DNA from: a virus
Taxonomy: Duplodnaviria; Heunggongvirae; Uroviricota; Caudoviricetes
Length of the DNA: 12,940 nt
Reading direction: 5' to 3' (one strand)
IMG/VR virus record: IMGVR_UViG_2563366820_000007
Made by a program: the position numbers and the translations under genes
Part shown: positions 242 through 12,106 of the stretch, piece by piece
Numbering within the stretch: position 1 is the stretch's first letter
Layout: each line of letters opens with the position of its first letter
Notes under the pieces: model-generated
The model's database searches: none
What the model saw: only the letters and a program-made list of their open reading frames with translations
Told to the model about the DNA's origin: nothing

Positions 242-823
242 TTATCCCGTTTTAGTGACTAACCATTGCAGAATAACGATAATTAAATATGTTAATGTGC
301 CAGTTCCAAGAAGTATTAATAATTGATAGCAACGTAGGACAATATTACTAATCGATTTTTGCATCACGATATTCACTGGCTCAGCCACACACTCTTTAGA
401 TCTTATCGATAGAATACTTGGAACTTCTGTATTTATTGATAATATTTCACATTGAATAGACTCACCAGGTGCAAGGCTTTCAAACTTGATAATATAGCGA
501 CCATCCTGTTCAATATTTTCTTCAAAATGGTGGACAGGCCAAAAATTAATATGCATTGGCTTATAGTTAAAAACCAATGATATATTAGTAGCACTTTCTC
601 GCCCTTCATTAACAAGAATAATAGATCGTGTATACACCAACTGTGAATTAGATATTACCTCACCATTGGCATTCCGTAAGGGTTCATTGAGAAGAAAAGT
701 AAATCCATGCTGATAACCATAGGATAACTTTGCCTTGCTTTTAAATCTGTTATTCAGTATCCATGTTAAAATCGCTATAAAAAAAGAAAATAGTTCTTTC
801 CCATAAAGACTAAAAAAACTCAT
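242..823 (-). CDS. hypothetical membrane protein, 193 aa, two predicted TM helices flanking a soluble domain of about 135 aa
   Basis: ORF track 242..826; the ATG at 821-823 has AAGGA about 8 nt upstream. Hydrophobic stretches LFSFFIAILTWIL near the N-terminus and LLILLGTGTLTYLIIVILQWLV near the C-terminus. GC content is visibly much lower than in neighbouring genes (roughly mid-30s percent by eye). No family recognised. Confidence 0.6.
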   Translation of the reverse strand: MSFFSLYGKELFSFFIAILTWILNNRFKSKAKLSYGYQHGFTFLLNEPLRNANGEVISNSQLVYTRSIILVNEGRESATNISLVFNYKPMHINFWPVHHFEENIEQDGRYIIKFESLAPGESIQCEILSINTEVPSILSIRSKECVAEPVNIVMQKSISNIVLRCYQLLILLGTGTLTYLIIVILQWLVTKTG

Positions 824-921
824 CACACATTTCCTTCAGTAATCTGATTCTGCTGTCAAAGTTACCAGCACTATAGTCATTCATCCACATTGCGACAAGA
901 AGGTTACAGCACGTTCAATCA

Positions 922-4307: not shown

Positions 4308-4321
4308 GCTTTGCCCCATCG

Positions 4322-4575
4322 TTACAACTGTCTACCGTATTAATACATCGATAATTAATGATTTTTACTAAATGGTAGACAGTGTAGATAGTTAAAATAA
4401 AAATTTTAAAAATGAACCCATAACTATCTGTTTTTATATACCCCCCCGTGGTTTAGAAATATAAAATAAACTGTCCACCTCTCTACCACATTAAAAATAC
4501 CTATATAATTCAAAACATTAATTAGTAGATGGTTGGTAGAGGGTTAAGTGTATCTGTCTACCAACCGTCTACCTT
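4322..4575. promoter_or_regulatory. AT-rich control region with GTAGAC-containing inverted repeats
   Basis: GGTAGACAGT at 4374-4383 and its reverse complement at 4326-4335, which lies in the 5' leader of the ProQ-like gene. Large inverted repeat GTAGATGGTTGGTAGAG (4524-4540) / CTGTCTACCAACCGTCTACC (4552-4571). Confidence 0.45.
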
Positions 4576-4661
4576 TACGTTTCAGCTTATAAATTTCGTA
4601 TTATGTTCTCCAACGGCGCTGATATAACATTCTGTTTTCATTTTTAACATCCATGATTTTT

Positions 4662-5055
4662 TAATTCCTCACCTGCTGCACAGTGAGAATTTATGAAGTT
4701 AATAACAATATGATTTTAAATATATTTTTAAGCACTCACTTTTTAATCCTTATATATACGCAAAAGTGAGGTAAATAGTTAAGTTTTAGTTAATATCTTG
4801 CATGGTGTGTTTTTTAACCTACCTGTTATTTTTATTACCTCATTTCTATTAACTCACCATTCCTCACTTTTGTTCCTCACTTTTTGTTATTCTTGTTCTG
4901 CTCCTCAGTCGTTTTCTTTATTGTTGTAATATGTTGTTTTGCAATGTGTTTTTAACTCCTCACTTTTTGATCTATATACAGGTGAGAAAGTGAGGAAAAC
5001 AGGGATGATTTTTAAATATTCCCTTCCCCCTCACTTTTACGCCTCACTTTTTACA
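4662..5055. repeat. iteron array, putative origin of replication
   Basis: At least 7 direct copies of CCTCACTTTT(T) at about 4735, 4862, 4875, 4968, 5029 and 5042, with degenerate copies at 4668 and 4838. Inverted copies AAAGTGAGG at 4762 and 4987 and GTGAG at 4683. AT-rich spacers. The last iteron overlaps the rep stop codon (5051-5053). Confidence 0.7.
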
Positions 5056-6463
5056 GTGGGCGCACATCATCACCGTCAATAGCGATTACGCCGTCACCTT
5101 CCAGCTTGTACAGCCAGCGCCGGAAGTTTTTCATCTCATACCCCAGCTTTTTCATGTCATCGCGCAACAACGGAATAGTGCATTTATCTCCGCGTTGCGT
5201 GCGTGAACGAATACAACCCCATAGTGCGGCGTGATTCTCCGTCTTGTTCCCGGCTTCCTCGATGCGCTCCAGTTCAACCGGCGAACGGGGCTTATCCTCC
5301 AGCACCAGCGACGTGATTAACTCCCCGCCTTCATCCTTGAAAAGCTCAACCTCGCGCAAATCGCAAGCCATTTCTTTCAGTTCCTCCGCATCCTTCATCT
5401 TGGTACATGCGATAACCAGGGCTTCACTGCCTGCACCTTCACGGCGTATCCGGTACTCTGCATCCAGTGCTGCACGAAACGCACTGGAACCGCGCGCACC
5501 CTTTGTTTCATCCTTGCCGGAATGATGAATTACCAGCACTGTAGCGCCTGTACGCCGTTTCAGTTCGTCACATCCATGGACAAATGCCCCCATATCCCGC
5601 GCATCATTTTCATCGCTGCCACCAAAGCAACGCGCCAGAGTATCCAGAATAATCATGCGTACAGGTTTACCCGTTTCCTGCTCAACCTGTCGGGCAGCAA
5701 TAACCATTTCATCAACATCACTCGGTGCGGCCGGAAAAATTGGACGATTTACCAGGTATAGATTTTTCACCTGCTCACTGTTCACCAGTTCCCATGCCTT
5801 GATACGACGAGGAACACCGATCCCGCCCTCACCAACGACATACATCACCGCACCATGTACAACCCTGCGACCTCCCCACGGGATACCGGTAGCAACATGA
5901 CACGCCCACGAACACGCAAGGAACGACTTATAAGAACCGCTCGCACCGTATGTGCTACATAGCGAATTAGCCGGAATCACGCCCTTAACTACATAGCTAA
6001 GCTGTGAATCATATCCTTCCGATCCAATGCTCATTGGTAGCGTGGTTTTTCGCTGGCTGTATTGCTCGTCAGTAAGCATTTCTTCGCGCTCTGCCTGTTC
6101 GCGGATCCGTTGCAGGTAATCGCGCCAGTTCTCCGGCTCCTGGTCGGTGATGCCTTTGTATAATTTCGCCTCCTGTACGCCAGCCAGCGCCAGTTTTTCA
6201 GCGATAGCGTTGATCTGGATTGGCTCTATCTCCCCCGCGATATAAACACGCGCAAAGCGGCGTTCATCGTCGACAATGCGGATATTCGCCAGGTCTGCCA
6301 GTTGCTTTGGCCCCAGATAAACAGGAGGCACGTTATCGCCATGTTTTCGTCCTTCGCTTTCAATCCAGTGTTGAGCATGGGAGTAAGCGTCCGCCCCGGC
6401 AAAAATGATTACCTCTGTGAATTTATCCTTCGGCTGATATTTCAAATTCGGTGCGTTTTTCAC
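5051..6463 (-). CDS. RepA-like replicative helicase (RecA-fold P-loop ATPase) with an N-terminal domain of about 150 aa
   Basis: GTG start at 6461-6463 with GGAGGT 6 nt upstream, overlapping the stop of the upstream gene (GTGA). C-terminal half carries a P-loop-like GASGSYKS, a Walker-B-like MIILDTL and a VLVIHHSGKD motif, typical of RSF1010 RepA / DnaB-like helicases. An iteron origin follows immediately. Confidence 0.8.
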   Translation of the reverse strand: MKNAPNLKYQPKDKFTEVIIFAGADAYSHAQHWIESEGRKHGDNVPPVYLGPKQLADLANIRIVDDERRFARVYIAGEIEPIQINAIAEKLALAGVQEAKLYKGITDQEPENWRDYLQRIREQAEREEMLTDEQYSQRKTTLPMSIGSEGYDSQLSYVVKGVIPANSLCSTYGASGSYKSFLACSWACHVATGIPWGGRRVVHGAVMYVVGEGGIGVPRRIKAWELVNSEQVKNLYLVNRPIFPAAPSDVDEMVIAARQVEQETGKPVRMIILDTLARCFGGSDENDARDMGAFVHGCDELKRRTGATVLVIHHSGKDETKGARGSSAFRAALDAEYRIRREGAGSEALVIACTKMKDAEELKEMACDLREVELFKDEGGELITSLVLEDKPRSPVELERIEEAGNKTENHAALWGCIRSRTQRGDKCTIPLLRDDMKKLGYEMKNFRRWLYKLEGDGVIAIDGDDVRPL

Positions 6464-6774
6464 TTCTTACCTCCCCGCTCACGAATAATTTCACGTACTG
6501 TCCTGATGCGTTCCGCGCCCGTGACGCTCATGATTTTGTCGATGTCGCTTAATTCTGCTGGTGGCGCTTTACTTACAAGGATGAATTCCCTTTCAAAGCG
6601 CATATGTGACGACACGCAGGGATGCGCATACCCTTCGCGGATATAGGTCACACGATAAGCACTCACCGTTTTTACCGTTATCTGACTGCCGTATTTATCC
6701 CGGAAAATATCGCCGGGGCGAATTTCAGGCCGAGAGAGACCGCTGGCAGTAAAGCCAGAATTTTTCTTTTTCAT
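6460..6774 (-). CDS. hypothetical protein, 104 aa, translationally coupled to rep
   Basis: ATG at 6772-6774 with AGGAAAA upstream; stop overlaps the rep GTG start. Family not recognised. Confidence 0.55.
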   Translation of the reverse strand: MKKKNSGFTASGLSRPEIRPGDIFRDKYGSQITVKTVSAYRVTYIREGYAHPCVSSHMRFEREFILVSKAPPAELSDIDKIMSVTGAERIRTVREIIRERGGKK

Positions 6775-6778
6775 GGTT

Positions 6779-6979
6779 TTATTTTCCTGTCAGCAGTTCC
6801 GGTTTTATTCCTGCACGAATACAGAGTTCAGAAAAGCCTTCTACCGTACTTACAATTTCATTATTTCGCAGTCGGCATTGTGATTTCACGTTCCCTTTAT
6901 CCAGGTAAACCAGTACGCGTCCGGTGAAATCATCTGGCACATTCAGGGTAATTGTCATTGTTGCTGGCTGATTACCCAT
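6779..6979 (-). CDS. small hypothetical protein, 66 aa, single copy of the FTG module
   Basis: ATG at 6977-6979 with GGGGGTG upstream. Contains DDFTGRVLVYLDKGNV...SELCIRAGIKPEL, paralogous to modules in the upstream 121-aa protein. Start overlaps the upstream stop (ATGGGTAA). Confidence 0.5.
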   Translation of the reverse strand: MGNQPATMTITLNVPDDFTGRVLVYLDKGNVKSQCRLRNNEIVSTVEGFSELCIRAGIKPELLTGK

Positions 6980-7337
6980 GATGCACCCCCTGAATGACCT
7001 GATAGCCGCAACAGGTCAGCAATTCGATAAATTCCGGTAATGTGCCGAAACAGCAATCATCACGCAGCTGTTCGCGGGATACCTCGACGCCGTTTTCGTA
7101 GTGACTCACCATACGTCCGGTAAAATGCAGATCATCATCGTGATGGCTCGTTGACGGCTTAATCAGTCGCGCACGTTCTGCCAGTTCCAGCAATGCTTCA
7201 ACACTTCCGGCAATTGCACCATCCGGCAGGTGGTAATTACGCACTATGCGCCCATTCTCCACATTGACCAGTAGCTGCCCGGTAAATTTCTCGTCAAACT
7301 GAATGCTGTTAAGGTCAGAAATTGACAGGTTATGCAT
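6972..7337 (-). CDS. hypothetical protein, 121 aa, two tandem FTG modules
   Basis: ATG at 7335-7337 with AGGGGGTAAG upstream. Two internal repeats: FTGQLLVNVENGRIV...SVEALLELAERARLIKP and FTGRMVSHYENGVEV...LPEFIELLTCCGYQV. Overlaps the upstream stop (ATGCATAA). Confidence 0.55.
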   Translation of the reverse strand: MHNLSISDLNSIQFDEKFTGQLLVNVENGRIVRNYHLPDGAIAGSVEALLELAERARLIKPSTSHHDDDLHFTGRMVSHYENGVEVSREQLRDDCCFGTLPEFIELLTCCGYQVIQGVHHG

Positions 7338-7695
7338 GGCTTACCCCCTGACGAATACGGGCGGCGAATACCATCACACAGCCATCAGGAGATTGCTGGC
7401 GTGCTTCCTGTTCGCTGGTGGCCTCGATGTGAATTACACGCGGTTGTGCCGTACTCAGGGCGATAAAACGCCAGATAAAATTGTTCTCGCATTTCTGAAT
7501 AAACAGCGTGTTTTCTTCGCGCCCTTTCCATGTTGCCGAGATATAGCCCATATCATTGAGCATCTCGCAGGCATCCACCAGCGTATCAGCGGCTACGTGT
7601 ACAGTGTTTTTACCGTCAGCCATGCAATCACGGTGCACCGCCAGGAAGGTGTATATAAATTTAGGGTGAGTTTGGGTATGCTGTGTTCCAGCCAT
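7330..7695 (-). CDS. hypothetical protein, 121 aa, first gene of the replication-side operon
   Basis: The track ORF 7330..8466 is trimmed to the ATG at 7693-7695 (MAGTQHTQ...), which has GAGGT 7 nt upstream. Internal duplication KFIYTFLAVHRD / NFIWRFIALSTAQ. Family not recognised. Confidence 0.55.
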   Translation of the reverse strand: MAGTQHTQTHPKFIYTFLAVHRDCMADGKNTVHVAADTLVDACEMLNDMGYISATWKGREENTLFIQKCENNFIWRFIALSTAQPRVIHIEATSEQEARQQSPDGCVMVFAARIRQGVSHA

Positions 7696-7784
7696 AATCG
7701 TTACCTCGTTTAACGGTTTGGTTAGACGCCCCGCTACTGCCGCAAACAGTTCGGGGCGTTGTCGTTTACATCCTCTTACTGAGG

Positions 7785-7882
7785 TGTGATTTAAATTAAA
7801 TTCAACTGAATCACAGGTCAAGTATTTTTTGTGATTCTTTTTTGTGTATACTGAATCACATCTTTTGTTTAGGAGAATGCAC
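7785..7882 (+). promoter_or_regulatory. divergent promoter/operator region
   Basis: Alternating half-sites TGTGATT (7785, 7830) and AATCACA (7810, 7854) at a spacing of about 22 bp. Extended -10 TGTGTATACT at 7842-7851. AGGAGAA ribosome-binding site at 7871-7877 before the ATG at 7883. Confidence 0.5.
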
Positions 7883-8188
7883 ATGGCAAAAAACACTATC
7901 AACGACAAATCAAAACAGATTTCAATTCGTATCCCACATGATGCTTTTGATGGCATGGAATCCGTAAAACTGGACGGCGAAAGCAACGCCGGATTCATAG
8001 TAACCGCCATGCGTGGTGAGATCGCCCGCCGCCAGGCAGAAGGAAGAGGAGAAAACCCCCTGGTTTCTTCGCTTGATGCACTGGCACAGGTGGAAAAAAT
8101 CGGAGTCAAAGCTGCCGAGGAGATCGGGCAGCTCGTCACCGTCGCGCGTGAAGAACTCCAGCGCCGCAAGGCCAAAGAACAGGAGTAG
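7883..8188 (+). CDS. small putative transcriptional regulator, 101 aa
   Basis: The only convincing plus-strand gene; ATG at 7883 with AGGAGA upstream (the track ORF starts earlier on GTG at 7844). Segment KQISIRIPHDAFDGM could be a ribbon-helix-helix-like beta strand followed by helices (weak). Divergent from the rep operon with operator-like repeats in between. Confidence 0.5.
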   Translation: MAKNTINDKSKQISIRIPHDAFDGMESVKLDGESNAGFIVTAMRGEIARRQAEGRGENPLVSSLDALAQVEKIGVKAAEEIGQLVTVAREELQRRKAKEQE

Positions 8189-8458
8189 TTGATCAGCACC
8201 GGGCGACCAGAAAAAATCGTATCAGTCGCGCCACCAGCAAAATTTTTTGCTTTCCGGACGACGTGGCCAACGACATTTTGCAGCAAAATATTCTGCATTT
8301 CTGGCGTGCTGTAGTAACGGTGATCAGCGCCTTCACTCTGTGCGACCACAACGCTATAATCTGCCTCGTAGACAGTAAGCAATATGGTGCTACAGGTAAT
8401 TCGTTCACAAAGGCGCTCCGGCAACGGGGCGCTTTCTCTTTTTGTAACGGTCAGAGCG

Positions 8459-9259
8459 TTACACATGGCTGTTTTCCTCCATGCGACGGGCTAACCAACG
8501 CTGCGAAAGGCGAATTAATTCAGCTTTCCGCTGGTGGTAGTCCTGGCCTAACTCAATCAGCGTGATATTGCTCTGCTCAAGGTAAGAAAGGTGCTCAAGC
8601 TGCAACGTGCTCATGTGGTCGCGTGGTTCGCCTGTAATGCCGTTCGCCAGTGCCCACTGTTTTGCAGTCATGCCGCCCAGCACGATACGCGCCAGCATAT
8701 TGGCTTCCGTGGTGTAATGGTGCTGTAGAGTGTTTTTACCCAGTTCAGCCCGGTACGCCTCCAGCGCGGCACACATTGGCTTAAAGTAGCTGGCAACTGT
8801 GATACGGGCTTTCAGTTCCCGGCGTAACGCTGCGGAACGTACAGGCGCAACCTTGTGTAGCTCTTCCTCGCATTTGATGAAGTACTGACGAACGGCGCGG
8901 CCCTGTTCGGTGCGTTCGACCATCGCCAGTTCTTTCGCCATGTTGATAGTGCTCAGGTAGTCGTGCTCTACACGTTGGCGAGATTTTGCGCTCACCGGAT
9001 TGGGGGAGGTCAAATTTTCTACGAATTCAAAATCCACGCCCTTTTTAAATCCGTACTCATCAATGCGTCCTTTAATCCAGGTTGTGAAATCACGCTTCAC
9101 ACCCAGCGCCTTATGCAACGCTCTGGCGCTAACAATATTGGTTTCACGCCCGCCAATAACGCCGGAAATAACCGGGATAATTTCGCCGAAATTTTGTTGG
9201 CTCTGGTTTTCAGGCCGAACGAATCCCTGCCCCTGTACGGGCGTTTTTCGCAGTTTCAT
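8459..9259 (-). CDS. phage antirepressor-like protein (AntA/KilA-type), 266 aa
   Basis: N-terminal region NIVSARALHKALGVKRDFTTWIKGRIDEYGFKKGVDFEF resembles antirepressor N-domains; C-terminal half is helical. Domain assignment from memory only. Confidence 0.55.
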   Translation of the reverse strand: MKLRKTPVQGQGFVRPENQSQQNFGEIIPVISGVIGGRETNIVSARALHKALGVKRDFTTWIKGRIDEYGFKKGVDFEFVENLTSPNPVSAKSRQRVEHDYLSTINMAKELAMVERTEQGRAVRQYFIKCEEELHKVAPVRSAALRRELKARITVASYFKPMCAALEAYRAELGKNTLQHHYTTEANMLARIVLGGMTAKQWALANGITGEPRDHMSTLQLEHLSYLEQSNITLIELGQDYHQRKAELIRLSQRWLARRMEENSHV

Positions 9260-9337: not shown

Positions 9338-9535
9338 TCAGGTAGCTGTTCCGCGTGATTCCGCAATACGCTGATTAATCCACTCGTCAATTTCACTCTC
9401 AACGAAAGCAATCGCTCGCGAGCCAATTTTAACTGATGCAGGAAATTTACCTTGCCCCATAAGGCGATAAATCCATGCCTTGCTATATCCAGTTCTACGC
9501 TGAACTTCCGTTAAACGAATAAGCGTATTTGACAT
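9338..9535 (-). CDS. alpA: AlpA-family transcriptional regulator / excisionase-like protein, 65 aa
   Basis: LTEVQRRTGYSKAWIYRLMGQGKFPASVKIGSRAIAFVESEIDEWI matches the AlpA (Phage_AlpA) pattern. GAGGT sits 4-5 nt upstream of the ATG. Confidence 0.85.
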   Translation of the reverse strand: MSNTLIRLTEVQRRTGYSKAWIYRLMGQGKFPASVKIGSRAIAFVESEIDEWINQRIAESRGTAT

Positions 9536-9755: not shown

Positions 9756-10526
9756 TCATCGTTTGATAGGACAGGCGACAAGCTCAATAGATGCGGCCTG
9801 TCGGGAGGTAAAACCTCGTTTTTCAAGCTCAGTAGTAATCGCGCCCTGGTTTCCCCTGGTTGCGCGATCATTCTCTGGGTCGTAATTGGCCCACTCTCTG
9901 TTTCTAATATCGATAGCCAGATACAATGGGTCATCATCACGATACGCCCTTAGCAAAATCGGGCGCTCCTTTTCTAACTGATTTACCCGCTCCCTTAACG
10001 ATTCATTTTCTTTTTCCAGCATTGCAATTCGGGATAAAAAATCATCATCTGTACGCAACTCTTTATGTTCAATATTGCTTCCTTGCGCCTCGTTATTTTC
10101 AGAAGAGTCAGCACATTCCAGATTCATTAACCCGTCAAGGATTTCTGGGAAAATTTCGAAAATTTCATTTCTTCTGAATCCCATTGCCTCAAATTCGGCA
10201 TCTTCCCAATAACCAGATACCAGAAAACCACTCTCATCCCTCTCACAAGGTAAACAACCACGCTCCCTAACCGTATCCAGTTTTGCATAAAGAAAGTTAA
10301 AATCAGGTCTCCACTCAAACGGATCCGAAGAATAAAGTTCCACCTCATTTAATGAATTTACTGTGTACAGGGTAATACCTGGATTTACTGTATTTATTCT
10401 CTTGAGTATCCAGGTAATGACTTCTGAAATATTAGCATCAACAACTTTAAATACATCATCAAGAAAATCACGTAAATAAATAAACTCTTTTTTATATTCA
10501 TTTAATTCGGCATGAATATCAACCAT
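9756..10526 (-). CDS. hypothetical protein, 256 aa, orphan cargo between int and alpA
   Basis: The track ORF 9756..10607 is trimmed to the ATG at 10524-10526 (MVDIHAELNEYKKEF...). Central coiled-coil-like segment LSRIAMLEKENESLRERVNQLEKERP. The 5' two-thirds of the gene is AT-rich. No family recognised. Confidence 0.55.
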   Translation of the reverse strand: MVDIHAELNEYKKEFIYLRDFLDDVFKVVDANISEVITWILKRINTVNPGITLYTVNSLNEVELYSSDPFEWRPDFNFLYAKLDTVRERGCLPCERDESGFLVSGYWEDAEFEAMGFRRNEIFEIFPEILDGLMNLECADSSENNEAQGSNIEHKELRTDDDFLSRIAMLEKENESLRERVNQLEKERPILLRAYRDDDPLYLAIDIRNREWANYDPENDRATRGNQGAITTELEKRGFTSRQAASIELVACPIKR

Positions 10527-10527
10527 A

Positions 10528-10582
10528 CGCACACCTCTGCGCCCTCTACCGTAGTGGCTGTGCCAGTCCGCAGAGGTGTGCG
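10528..10582 (-). promoter_or_regulatory. perfect 14-bp inverted repeat (hairpin) covering the ribosome-binding site of the 256-aa gene
   Basis: CGCACACCTCTGCG (10528-10541) and CGCAGAGGTGTGCG (10569-10582) separated by 27 nt. In the minus-strand mRNA the 3' arm contains GAGGUG directly upstream of the AUG at 10526. No U-tract follows, so it is not a typical intrinsic terminator. Confidence 0.6.
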
Positions 10583-10653
10583 GATTTTCGGGAGCGACCC
10601 TAGACACAGCCTTTTCTTAATCGCTCAAAGTCTACTACTGTATACTCAACCAG

Positions 10654-11868
10654 TCACCCGCATTTTCCGAACTCACCATGCACCACATTTCCGCCATGCT
10701 CGAGCGAATCCATATAGTCGGCGTACCACTGGAGCATCTCGCGCCGCCCGTCCAGATATTGCGCATGATTGTACGTGCCACGAATTGAGTTCTTATCAAC
10801 GTGTGCAAGCTGCGTTTCTATCCACGCGGTGTTATAGCCCTGCTCATGCAAAATGGTGCTCATGGTGTGCCGGAATCCATGACCAGTAACGCGCCCGGCA
10901 TAGCCGATACGACGAATGAGCACATTCATCGCCATTTCACTCATTGGCTTACTGTGGTGAATACGACCGGGGAAAATAAACTGATACTGGCCTGTCATGT
11001 TTTTTAACTGCTCCAGTATTTTTATCGCCTGTTCTGGTAATGGCACACAATGCGGACGGCGCATCTTCATTCGTTCTTTAGGCACTTCCCACAAACGATT
11101 ATCAAAATCGATCTCCTGCCATTCTGCCTGCCGTAATTCCCCGGGTCTGACACCTGTCAGAATTAATAGCCGCATTGCCAGTTTGACGATCTGGCTTCCG
11201 GTGTACGTATTAAAAACGCGGAAAAATTCCGGCAGTTCGTCGGCCTTCAAATAGGCGTAATGCTCTTTTTTATGTGGAGCAAATGCGCTCACCAGGTCAG
11301 GGGCTGGATTATATTCGGCGCGTCCGGTGATGATTGCGTACCGGAACACCTCGCCGCATCGCTGGCGAACCTTACGCAATTTTTCAGTCGCACCACGGTC
11401 ATTAAGACGGGAAAGAACCGCCAGCAATTCCATCGGCTTAATTTCTGCGATCGGCCTACCGCCAATGTACGGAAAAACATCTTTTTCAAACGTCTCGATC
11501 ATTTCCTCGGCGTATGACGATGACCACCTGTCGATCCGCTTTTCGTACCATTCGCGAGCAATACCCTCAAAAGTATTGCCAAATTTGCTCGCCTGTTCTC
11601 GCTTTTGGGCTTTTCTGGCCTCACTTGGATTTATACCACCAGCAAGAAGCCTTTTAGCCTCATCCCTTGCCGCCCTGGCATCAGACAGAGACACATCAGG
11701 GTATACCCCCAACGACAACATTTTGGGCTTTCCTGCAAACCTGTAGCGCAGTCGCCACCCTTTCGAACCGTTCGGCTCAATGAGCAACGAAAGCCCGTTA
11801 CCGTCATTGAGTGTATAAGCCTTTTCTTTCGGCTTCGCGCGCCTGATGGCAAGGTCTGAAAGCAGCAT
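10654..11868 (-). CDS. int: P4-family tyrosine integrase, about 405 aa
   Basis: N-terminus MLLSDLAIRRAKPKEKAYTLNDGNGLSLLIEPNGSKGWRLRYRFAGKPK is a typical P4-type integrase arm-binding domain. C-terminus carries HGFRHT and RGTYNHAQY catalytic motifs. Adjacent to a tRNA gene. Start at ATG 11866-11868; an upstream in-frame ATG at 11907 is also possible. Confidence 0.9.
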   Translation of the reverse strand: MLLSDLAIRRAKPKEKAYTLNDGNGLSLLIEPNGSKGWRLRYRFAGKPKMLSLGVYPDVSLSDARAARDEAKRLLAGGINPSEARKAQKREQASKFGNTFEGIAREWYEKRIDRWSSSYAEEMIETFEKDVFPYIGGRPIAEIKPMELLAVLSRLNDRGATEKLRKVRQRCGEVFRYAIITGRAEYNPAPDLVSAFAPHKKEHYAYLKADELPEFFRVFNTYTGSQIVKLAMRLLILTGVRPGELRQAEWQEIDFDNRLWEVPKERMKMRRPHCVPLPEQAIKILEQLKNMTGQYQFIFPGRIHHSKPMSEMAMNVLIRRIGYAGRVTGHGFRHTMSTILHEQGYNTAWIETQLAHVDKNSIRGTYNHAQYLDGRREMLQWYADYMDSLEHGGNVVHGEFGKCG

Positions 11869-11962
11869 GTGTATAGCTCCAAAAAATAAATTTTGTCCTA
11901 TACGCATTACTATACACTTCTGTGTGTAGATTCTGGTAGTTGTGAGTAGACGTTAATAAGCT

Positions 11963-12032: not shown

Positions 12033-12106
12033 TGGAGCGGGCGAAGGGAATCGAACCCTCGTATAGAGCTTGGGAAGCTCTCGTTCTACCATTGAACTAC
12101 GCCCGC
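12033..12106 (-). tRNA. glyU: tRNA-Gly (anticodon CCC)
   Basis: The reverse complement reads GCGGGCGTAGTTCAATGGTAGAACGAGAGCTTCCCAAGCTCTATACGAGGGTTCGATTCCCTTCGCCCGCTCCA (74 nt), with cloverleaf arms and anticodon loop TTCCCAA. Matches E. coli glyU as I recall it. Confidence 0.9.

Follow-up and report, generated by a model that had tools for sequence, protein, structure and literature searches.

Which factors are encoded by the small genes that lie between the regulator and the replicase of a phage satellite? Phage-inducible chromosomal islands (PICIs) and P4-like satellites are very common in Escherichia coli—roughly a quarter to a third of complete genomes match the region studied here, with related islands in 1306 to 1673 of 5426—and almost all of their genes from alpA to the replicase are unnamed. 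We analysed one such region in a 12,940-nt stretch of Caudoviricetes DNA (IMG/VR record IMGVR_UViG_2563366820_000007; hereafter the window, whose whole-length numbering is used throughout), which we classify from its gene content as a PICI-type phage satellite inserted at a tRNA-Gly gene of E. coli KTE146. A first-pass annotation had singled out a small-protein module, here called FTG after a motif in it, that is repeated across two overlapping genes of the early operon. The repeat is a solid observation, its family is catalogued but uncharacterised, and the operon is of an already known type: the FTG genes are a non-homologous occupant of the slot held by epsilon in satellite P4, not a new kind of system.

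Three diverged copies of the FTG module in two genes

The module is carried by two consecutive open reading frames (ORFs):

6972..7337, minus strand: ORF-B, 121 aa, two FTG modules
7152..7337, minus strand: ORF-B module 1, residues 1-62, FTG at residues 18-20
6975..7151, minus strand: ORF-B module 2, residues 63-121, FTG at residues 72-74
6779..6979, minus strand: ORF-C, 66 aa, a single FTG module

That the module occurs twice in ORF-B and once in ORF-C, as first proposed from inspection, is borne out by pairwise alignments and by the PHROG 340 profile, which agree. Local alignments among residues 1-66 of ORF-B (B1), residues 67-121 (B2) and ORF-C gave scores of 54, 66 and 48, where shuffled sequences averaged about 20 (z of 9.3, 10.9 and 7.0), and none of 2000 shuffles equalled the observed score; the self-alignment that had been named as a check thus finds the similarity of the copies significant (z 7-11). 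PHROG 340 matches ORF-B in two stretches (E 1.1e-29) and ORF-C at E 1e-17.

The three copies are 25-30% identical to each other and are old, diverged paralogues. Among distant two-module proteins, the nearest counterparts of ORF-B module 1 are the first modules of P0103, P0105 and P0106 (scores 115-132), and those of ORF-B module 2 are the second modules of P0105 (score 104) and P0103 (score 81). Since each module has its own distant counterparts, the two-module form is old, predates its spread and has differentiated positions. ORF-B is acidic, with an isoelectric point of 5.2, and ORF-C is near neutral. A homologue of ORF-B in a related 90% cluster (P0259) is found on 848 contigs and a 66-aa member of the ORF-C 90% cluster (P0258) on at least 1000. 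In rare deletion derivatives, module 1 is fused through a short shared motif either to module 2 or to ORF-C; among the deletion or chimeric derivatives P0032, P0036, P0041, P0046, P0051 and P0070, some are in register and others are not, and P0001 and P0066 are read-through fusions with neighbouring cassettes.

The AlphaFold2 (AF2) model of ORF-C (pLDDT 84.6) has a beta-hairpin at residues 21-27 and 30-37 and a helix at residues 46-55, and predicts a module of about 55 aa (50-60) composed of the FTG turn, the hairpin and the helix. An extended N-terminal segment may belong to it as well, to judge from high model confidence where no secondary structure is assigned. Comparison of the ORF-C model with solved folds (HicB-like, beta-grasp and ribbon-helix-helix among them) gave no significant match to any, and sequence searches of the PDB with ORF-B and ORF-C found no relatives. 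The AF2 model of the two-module ORF-B, built from a shallow alignment, is unusable (pLDDT 47).

A catalogued family of satellites and temperate prophages

An exhaustive search with the FTG profile against 1.84 billion representatives returned only 108 proteins at E <=0.001, so that the family amounts to about 100 clusters. Most members are single-module proteins of 60-90 aa and few have two modules; some long repetitive matches are MORN-like noise. The consensus, l.V.pdFTGRvlvyvENGkv.s...L.d.E.v.tl..F.ELA..AGy.V.pp, has a motif that is conserved across Enterobacterales at 25-45% identity. Nearly all named members reside in satellites and temperate prophages of this order, the named carriers being Escherichia, Salmonella, Klebsiella, Dickeya, Pectobacterium, Pantoea, Raoultella, Citrobacter and Enterobacter. 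Phage records with the module include Fels-1, temperate phages of Klebsiella and E. coli, two Stenotrophomonas phages and one Elizabethkingia phage; STM0898.2n of Fels-1 and the 'prophage protein' B7L402 of E. coli 55989 are members annotated as hypothetical. The module is also found in fusions, at the C-terminus of a Bro-N domain protein (P0134) and joined to an Icd-like domain (P0066).

The first-pass annotation had called the family unrecognised. This stands in that the FTG module carries no assigned function; however, it is already catalogued, both as PHROG 340 and through the precomputed Pfam label PF27490.1 on the homologues P0021 and P0023 (85% and 79% identical to ORF-B). In a copy of Pfam without the PF27490 model, ORF-B and ORF-C had no significant match and a single sub-threshold one (0.13), and a literature search on PF27490, PHROG 340 and DUF4222 returned no functional information.

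The operon opens with a tandem Icd-like protein

The gene upstream of ORF-B is the first of the operon and can be divided as follows:

7330..7695, minus strand: ORF-A, 121 aa, Icd-like protein of the P4 Kil/Eta type, two Icd-like copies
7546..7695, minus strand: degenerate N-terminal Icd-like copy (MAGTQHTQTHPKFIYTFLAV...), residues 1-50
7336..7500, minus strand: canonical C-terminal Icd-like domain (FIWRFIAL...EATSEQEAR...VFAARI), residues 66-120

For ORF-A, the label of an unrecognised family does not hold: it is a clear Icd-like protein that matches NF033153 in two stretches (E 4.7e-23, 81 bits against a curated cut-off of 25) and also PHROG 6196/1743. An internal repeat in ORF-A had been suggested too, and here the outcome depends on the method, as profiles detect it and pairwise alignment does not (z 1.1). 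The C-terminal half alone matches NF033153 at E 1.9e-20, and the N-terminal half alone gives a weak, partial match at E 0.042. An Icd-like hidden Markov model (HMM) built without E. coli sequences scored 24.7 bits on residues 1-36 and 46 bits on residues 71-114. The N-terminus is nearly identical to that of a single-domain Icd-like protein of Pectobacterium, and natural ORF-A variants of 96 and 67 aa fit a tandem arrangement. We read ORF-A as a tandem Icd-like protein whose first copy is degenerate. The Icd protein of phage P1 blocks host cell division by targeting FtsZ (PMC11897509).

Icd-like and FTG domains are not distant relatives of each other (hhalign probability 1%). In the P4 genome (L127, NC_001609), the ORF at 8168-8584 (minus strand), annotated 'cI gene product / transcriptional repressor', ends in 65 residues that form an Icd-like domain (E 1e-21). 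This probably explains the label 'transcriptional repressor' on PHROGs 6196/1743, which is likely to be misleading.

Both FTG genes start at the same kind of overlap junction

ORF-B and ORF-C each begin within the end of the preceding gene:

7330..7348, minus strand: A/B junction GGGGGTAAGCCATGCATAA, with a Shine-Dalgarno sequence, the ORF-B ATG and, 5 nt on, the ORF-A TAA; 8-nt overlap
6972..6990, minus strand: B/C junction GGGGGTGCATCATGGGTAA; 8-nt overlap

The near-identical ribosome-binding contexts and the overlaps with the upstream stops that had been described for these genes can be read directly from the DNA, as CAGGGGGTAAGCCATGCATAA at 7330-7350 and CAGGGGGTGCATCATGGGTAA at 6972-6992. 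Both junctions carry GGGGGT-N5-ATG-NN-TAA, and the more general pattern GGRGGT-N5-ATG-NN-TRA has two matches in the window, against 0.01 expected, both of them at these sites. Such geometry would allow ribosomes that end the upstream gene to restart on the next one, i.e. translational coupling. The same combination of Shine-Dalgarno sequence and 8-nt overlap follows Icd-like genes in P4, in Dickeya-type satellites, in the lambdoid prophage L015 and in vB_KppS-Ant, and among the gene arrangements found downstream of Icd-like genes the junction is conserved throughout as CAGGrGGT-N5-ATG-NN-TGA/TAA. Because the junction DNA encodes them, unrelated proteins at this position share M-x-N/D starts and ...(Q/E)(G/E)V-x-H-x ends. 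Annotators should therefore treat these conserved termini (M-x-N/D..., ...Q-G-V-x-H-x) as by-products of the junction and not as features of the proteins.

The FTG genes occupy a variable cassette slot

Downstream of ORF-C, the operon continues with two genes:

6460..6774, minus strand: DUF4222 protein, 104 aa (PF13973, E 1.1e-17)
5051..6463, minus strand: RepA-type helicase (AAA_25), the island replicase (PF13481, E 3.8e-44; PHROG 2850, E 5e-221)

The DUF4222 gene, whose stop overlaps the start of the replicase, was found directly upstream of the replicase in every E. coli island variant inspected. ORF-B and ORF-C occupy a variable cassette slot between the Icd-like gene and this DUF4222/replicase pair. 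Proteins identical to ORF-A are followed by ORF-B and ORF-C, by ORF-B, a 77-aa protein and ORF-C, or by a single unrelated 75-aa protein; genes for slightly different Icd-like proteins are followed by a 74-aa protein, ORF-B, the 77-aa protein and ORF-C, or by proteins of 74 aa, 106 aa or 64 plus 72 aa. The Icd-B-C-DUF4222 block, in turn, precedes three unrelated replicases (AAA_25, D5_N/DUF5906 and DUF927) and sits behind differing antA, pRha or alpA genes.

At least five other unrelated families of small, mostly acidic, helical proteins share the slot after Icd-like genes: PHROGs 5146, 24341/2512 and 2196, plus one family of 106-aa and one of 64-aa proteins (loci L001 6513-6746 and 7097-7321, L007 4359-4586, L128 2859-3179 and L132 4146-4555). 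The FTG profile matched none of the other slot proteins, which rules out homology of FTG to these cassettes.

Outside E. coli satellites, an Icd-like gene followed by an FTG gene was found in Dickeya (L003), in Pectobacterium (L035) and, with the same 8-nt overlap, in prophage L015, whose FTG DNA had no match in E. coli. Gene context was counted in the best 80 of 291 IMG/VR loci that encode an FTG relative. An Icd-like gene lies upstream of FTG in 12 of these, mostly on satellite-sized contigs of 14-19 kb. In 67, the FTG gene directly follows a PHROG 1737 gene and is often followed by PHROG 1886, in prophages of 38-46 kb. This is the arrangement of Fels-1 and LMessi, in which FTG belongs to the early-left operon between a CI-type repressor and xis/int. 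Lambdoid prophages display a four-gene early-left block of PHROG 8959, PHROG 1737, FTG and PHROG 1886 (L017, Fels-1, 4419-5589; L018; L004). The neighbours of FTG, examined for functional clues, all belong to PHROGs of unknown function. Paralogous small-domain genes do stand at the head of a replication operon in the window, as the first-pass annotation had it; the arrangement is not specific to replication, given the three replicase types and the early-left operons of prophages.

Related operons in P4, P1 and ECOR61

The window is organised like the left operon of P4, with an Icd/Kil-like gene followed by a slot for swappable cassettes. The P4 order is an AlpA/Vis-type regulator, the Icd-like 'cI ORF' (kil/eta), the helper derepression protein epsilon, ORF151, ORF106 and the alpha primase. 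As in the window, epsilon and ORF151 each start at a Shine-Dalgarno-N5-NTG-NN-TAA/TGA junction with an 8-nt overlap, which for epsilon and the Icd-like ORF reads GGAGGTGTCCCGTGCGTAA. ORF-B has the position of an epsilon-type gene in each respect: it lies downstream of the Icd-like ORF, overlaps it by 8 nt and is upstream of the replicase. The proteins themselves differ. Epsilon is a basic protein of 95 aa, whereas ORF-B is acidic; phmmer gave E >1 for epsilon against ORF-B, did not list epsilon among ORF-B matches up to E 10 and gave E 1.7 for ORF-C against epsilon, and the FTG HMM matched neither epsilon nor ORF151. Homology of FTG to P4 epsilon or ORF151 is thus ruled out. The two elements also differ in their replicases (an AAA_25 RepA in the window, alpha in P4) and in their cargo, the window having PerC-family, protease-like and TerS-like genes and lacking the sid, psu and delta of P4. 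Epsilon acts on the C repressor of phage P2, and Ant of phage P1 acts on C1; icd and ant reportedly overlap and are translationally coupled. In both studied cases, P4 and P1, the gene after the Icd-type gene thus encodes a repressor-binding protein.

The P1 immI operon has the order c4-icd-ant1/2, and Ant is an antirepressor (PMC8198154). It shares with the window a gene for a small Icd-type protein directly upstream of a gene for a protein-binding effector, within one operon; unlike the small proteins of the window, P1 Ant is large and unrelated. An antisense RNA of the C4 type, which P1 has upstream of icd, was not found before the Icd-like gene in an Rfam scan of the window, whose only matches above threshold were the tRNA and an int-alpA RNA. 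The likeness of FTG to epsilon and Ant is one of position.

In E. coli ECOR61, the phage accessory protein orf24 triggers cell death, and transposon suppressors fall in an Icd-like gene whose length is exactly 366 nt and whose N-terminus is described as being extended by a long stretch, and in the pair of small genes that come immediately downstream, the first overlapping it by 8 nt; six linked genes, a primase gene among them, were needed to rebuild the effect (Silas et al., bioRxiv 10.1101/2023.04.06.535777). With its 366-nt Icd-like gene, overlapping small genes and primase, this is the same kind of operon as that of the window. Unlike ORF-B and ORF-C, the two ECOR61 small genes, at QOYT01000045.1:8940-9317, encode proteins of 61 and 63 aa, and the second overlap is 1 nt. 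This 61+63-aa arrangement was absent from the roughly 20 E. coli neighbourhoods inspected, among them those of three common Icd-like variants and of five E. coli genomes. The PHROG 340/PF27490 relatives have the same module as the window but are mostly single-module proteins in prophage early-left operons after PHROG 1737; the window has its three modules spread over two genes that follow an Icd-like one.

Possible functions of the FTG proteins

We tentatively favour, at somewhat less than even confidence, a role for the FTG proteins as small, protein-binding early effectors that act on a helper-phage or host protein, possibly in the manner of an antirepressor. ORF-B and ORF-C would be translationally coupled and, on induction of the island, produced alongside the Icd-like protein. 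Their target would be a protein of the helper phage or the host, most plausibly a repressor or another regulator, on which they would act as epsilon acts on P2 C and Ant on C1; the single module of ORF-C might dimerise, and ORF-B might amount to a pseudo-dimer with a covalent link. We count in favour of such a role the repeat and its conserved motif, the confident ORF-C model, the junctions, the synteny with P4 and P1, the linkage of Icd-like and FTG genes, the Bro-N and Icd fusions, the swappable slot and the pairing of the block with different replicases. The first-pass annotation had likewise suggested helper-sensing or host-interaction factors. Of the possible readings, a role of this kind is the one that the synteny with P4 epsilon and P1 ant supports best, the function itself being an extrapolation. 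The comparison gives the PHROG 340 family its first contextual hypothesis and marks the slot as a place to seek factors that link PICIs to helper phages or trigger cell death.

Several observations pull the other way. Neither in sequence nor in fold do ORF-B and ORF-C resemble epsilon, ORF151, any known antirepressor or any solved structure, and the antirepressor idea is an argument from position. None of the 67 loci with PHROG 1737 has an Icd-like gene; since most FTG genes in viral contigs are in prophages of this kind, a satellite-specific role in helper derepression cannot be general. A simple frameshift in the overlap could account for the Icd fusion, and the pseudo-dimer would have to be squared with the poor two-module model (pLDDT 47).

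One alternative, which we consider rather unlikely, is that temperate phages use FTG proteins for host takeover or anti-defence in general, as small inhibitors of the sort of lambda Kil, CIII, Gam and Ral, and that satellites have borrowed them without any link to helper control. The family is indeed commonest in prophage early-left operons (Fels-1, LMessi, Klebsiella prophages; the 67 of 80 IMG/VR loci), copy number and cassette content vary, and ORF-B is acidic like other slot cassettes. ORF-C, however, is near neutral, neither protein resembles known anti-defence proteins or folds, and the tight synteny with PHROGs 1737 and 1886 in prophages points to a fixed partnership and not to a free-standing inhibitor.

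The main rival to the effector role, although we give it a slightly lower probability again, is that the FTG proteins are parts of an Icd-like-dependent module for programmed cell death or superinfection exclusion, as proposed for the ECOR61 locus; they would either detect a phage trigger or act on Icd-like toxicity, by gating or assisting it. The ECOR61 locus shares the architecture of ORF-A, ORF-B and ORF-C in gene length (366 nt) and 8-nt overlap (10.1101/2023.04.06.535777), Icd-like genes precede FTG in four lineages, a fusion of the two exists, and P1 Icd has FtsZ as its target (PMC11897509). Yet the 61/63-aa genes of ECOR61, missing from the E. coli neighbourhoods inspected, may be non-FTG helical cassettes; an identical Icd-like protein also occurs without any FTG gene, and most FTG genes in viral contigs have no Icd-like neighbour. 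A PADLOC 2.0 scan of ORF-A, ORF-B, ORF-C, the DUF4222 protein and RepA gave no match.

A replication accessory role, as a helicase loader or origin-binding protein for the RepA-type helicase, is very unlikely. Its appeal is that the FTG genes share an operon with DUF4222 and the replicase and lie upstream of both, and that the Dickeya, Pectobacterium and E. coli elements always place FTG before a primase or helicase. We nevertheless reject it since the same block precedes three unrelated replicase types and, in prophages, FTG is far from the replication genes, on the opposite side of the immunity region; furthermore, unrelated cassettes replace the FTG genes before the same replicase, ORF-B is acidic and neither protein matched a known DNA-binding family or fold. 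That ORF-B and ORF-C are decaying duplicates or non-functional frames that hitch-hike with the operon, as the many deletion and chimeric derivatives between modules (some out of register) might suggest, is highly improbable given that intact forms dominate (848 to more than 1000 contigs for related cluster members), the motif is kept at 25-45% identity, the AF2 model of the module is confident and the coupling signals are conserved.

A more ambitious version of the effector role seems to us unlikely, although worth stating: the FTG module would be a new fold family of antirepressor or sensor type, and the post-Icd/Kil slot of P4-like and PICI satellites a general, coupled 'plug-in' site. If so, the occupants of this site would be P4 epsilon, the FTG proteins and several acidic helical cassettes; the paralogues B1, B2 and C would differ in the helper-phage repressors or phage triggers that they recognise; and the slot would explain why small downstream genes are needed for phage-triggered death in ECOR61.

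The surrounding island

The remaining features of the island are:

12033-12106: tRNA-Gly(CCC), adjoining actS/ygeR
10654-11907, minus strand: tyrosine integrase
9338-9535, minus strand: alpA
8459-9259, minus strand: antA
7886..8188, plus strand: divergent gene of the YlcI/YnfO family (NF041551, E 4.1e-18)
7696..7885: regulatory region from which the operon and the YlcI/YnfO gene diverge; inverted repeats of TGTGATT(C) and, at 7726-7759, a leader hairpin
4320-5050: AT-rich, iteron-filled non-coding gap downstream of the helicase gene
Beyond this gap: ProQ/FinO, PerC-family, protease-like and TerS-like genes

Assignment to the PICI type draws on the integrase at a tRNA site, AlpA, a replicase with an adjacent origin and a remnant of packaging or morphogenesis genes, together with a size of about 10-15 kb and the absence of lysis and tail genes; the PerC-family, protease-like and TerS-like genes add support. 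ORF-A, ORF-B and ORF-C match the E. coli KTE146 proteins ELG86647-49 exactly.

In the region 7696-7885, four half-sites of TGTGATT(C)/GAATCACA make up two inverted repeats (7780-7820 and 7830-7860), and the stable leader hairpin (-32 kcal/mol, z -2.8) has no U-tract; the early operon probably has its operator and leader here. The YlcI/YnfO gene, which keeps the same position in related islands, is a candidate regulator of the operon. In the gap at 4320-5050, CCTCACTTTT and CTGTCTACC recur many times in either orientation; they resemble iterons and make this the probable replication origin of the island.

At the far end of the island, a 194-aa ORF (242-826, minus strand) has hydrophobic N- and C-terminal segments and no PHROG or PADLOC match. 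Between the integrase and a 283-aa ORF, the Rfam int-alpA RNA motif (RF02996) is found at 10543-10610 on the minus strand (48.4 bits against a gathering threshold of 35.8). Since it overlaps the called GTG start of this ORF, the true start is probably further downstream, which is where it is annotated in the related locus L001. The 283-aa ORF itself (9756-10607, minus strand) is an orphan in the int/alpA slot, with no Pfam, PHROG or PADLOC match. The related island L128 has a TIR-domain protein (1240-2115) just after the regulator gene, and L131 a DUF6387 protein (545-1399) between int and the regulator; the int-alpA slot looks like a variable, possibly defence-related, hotspot.

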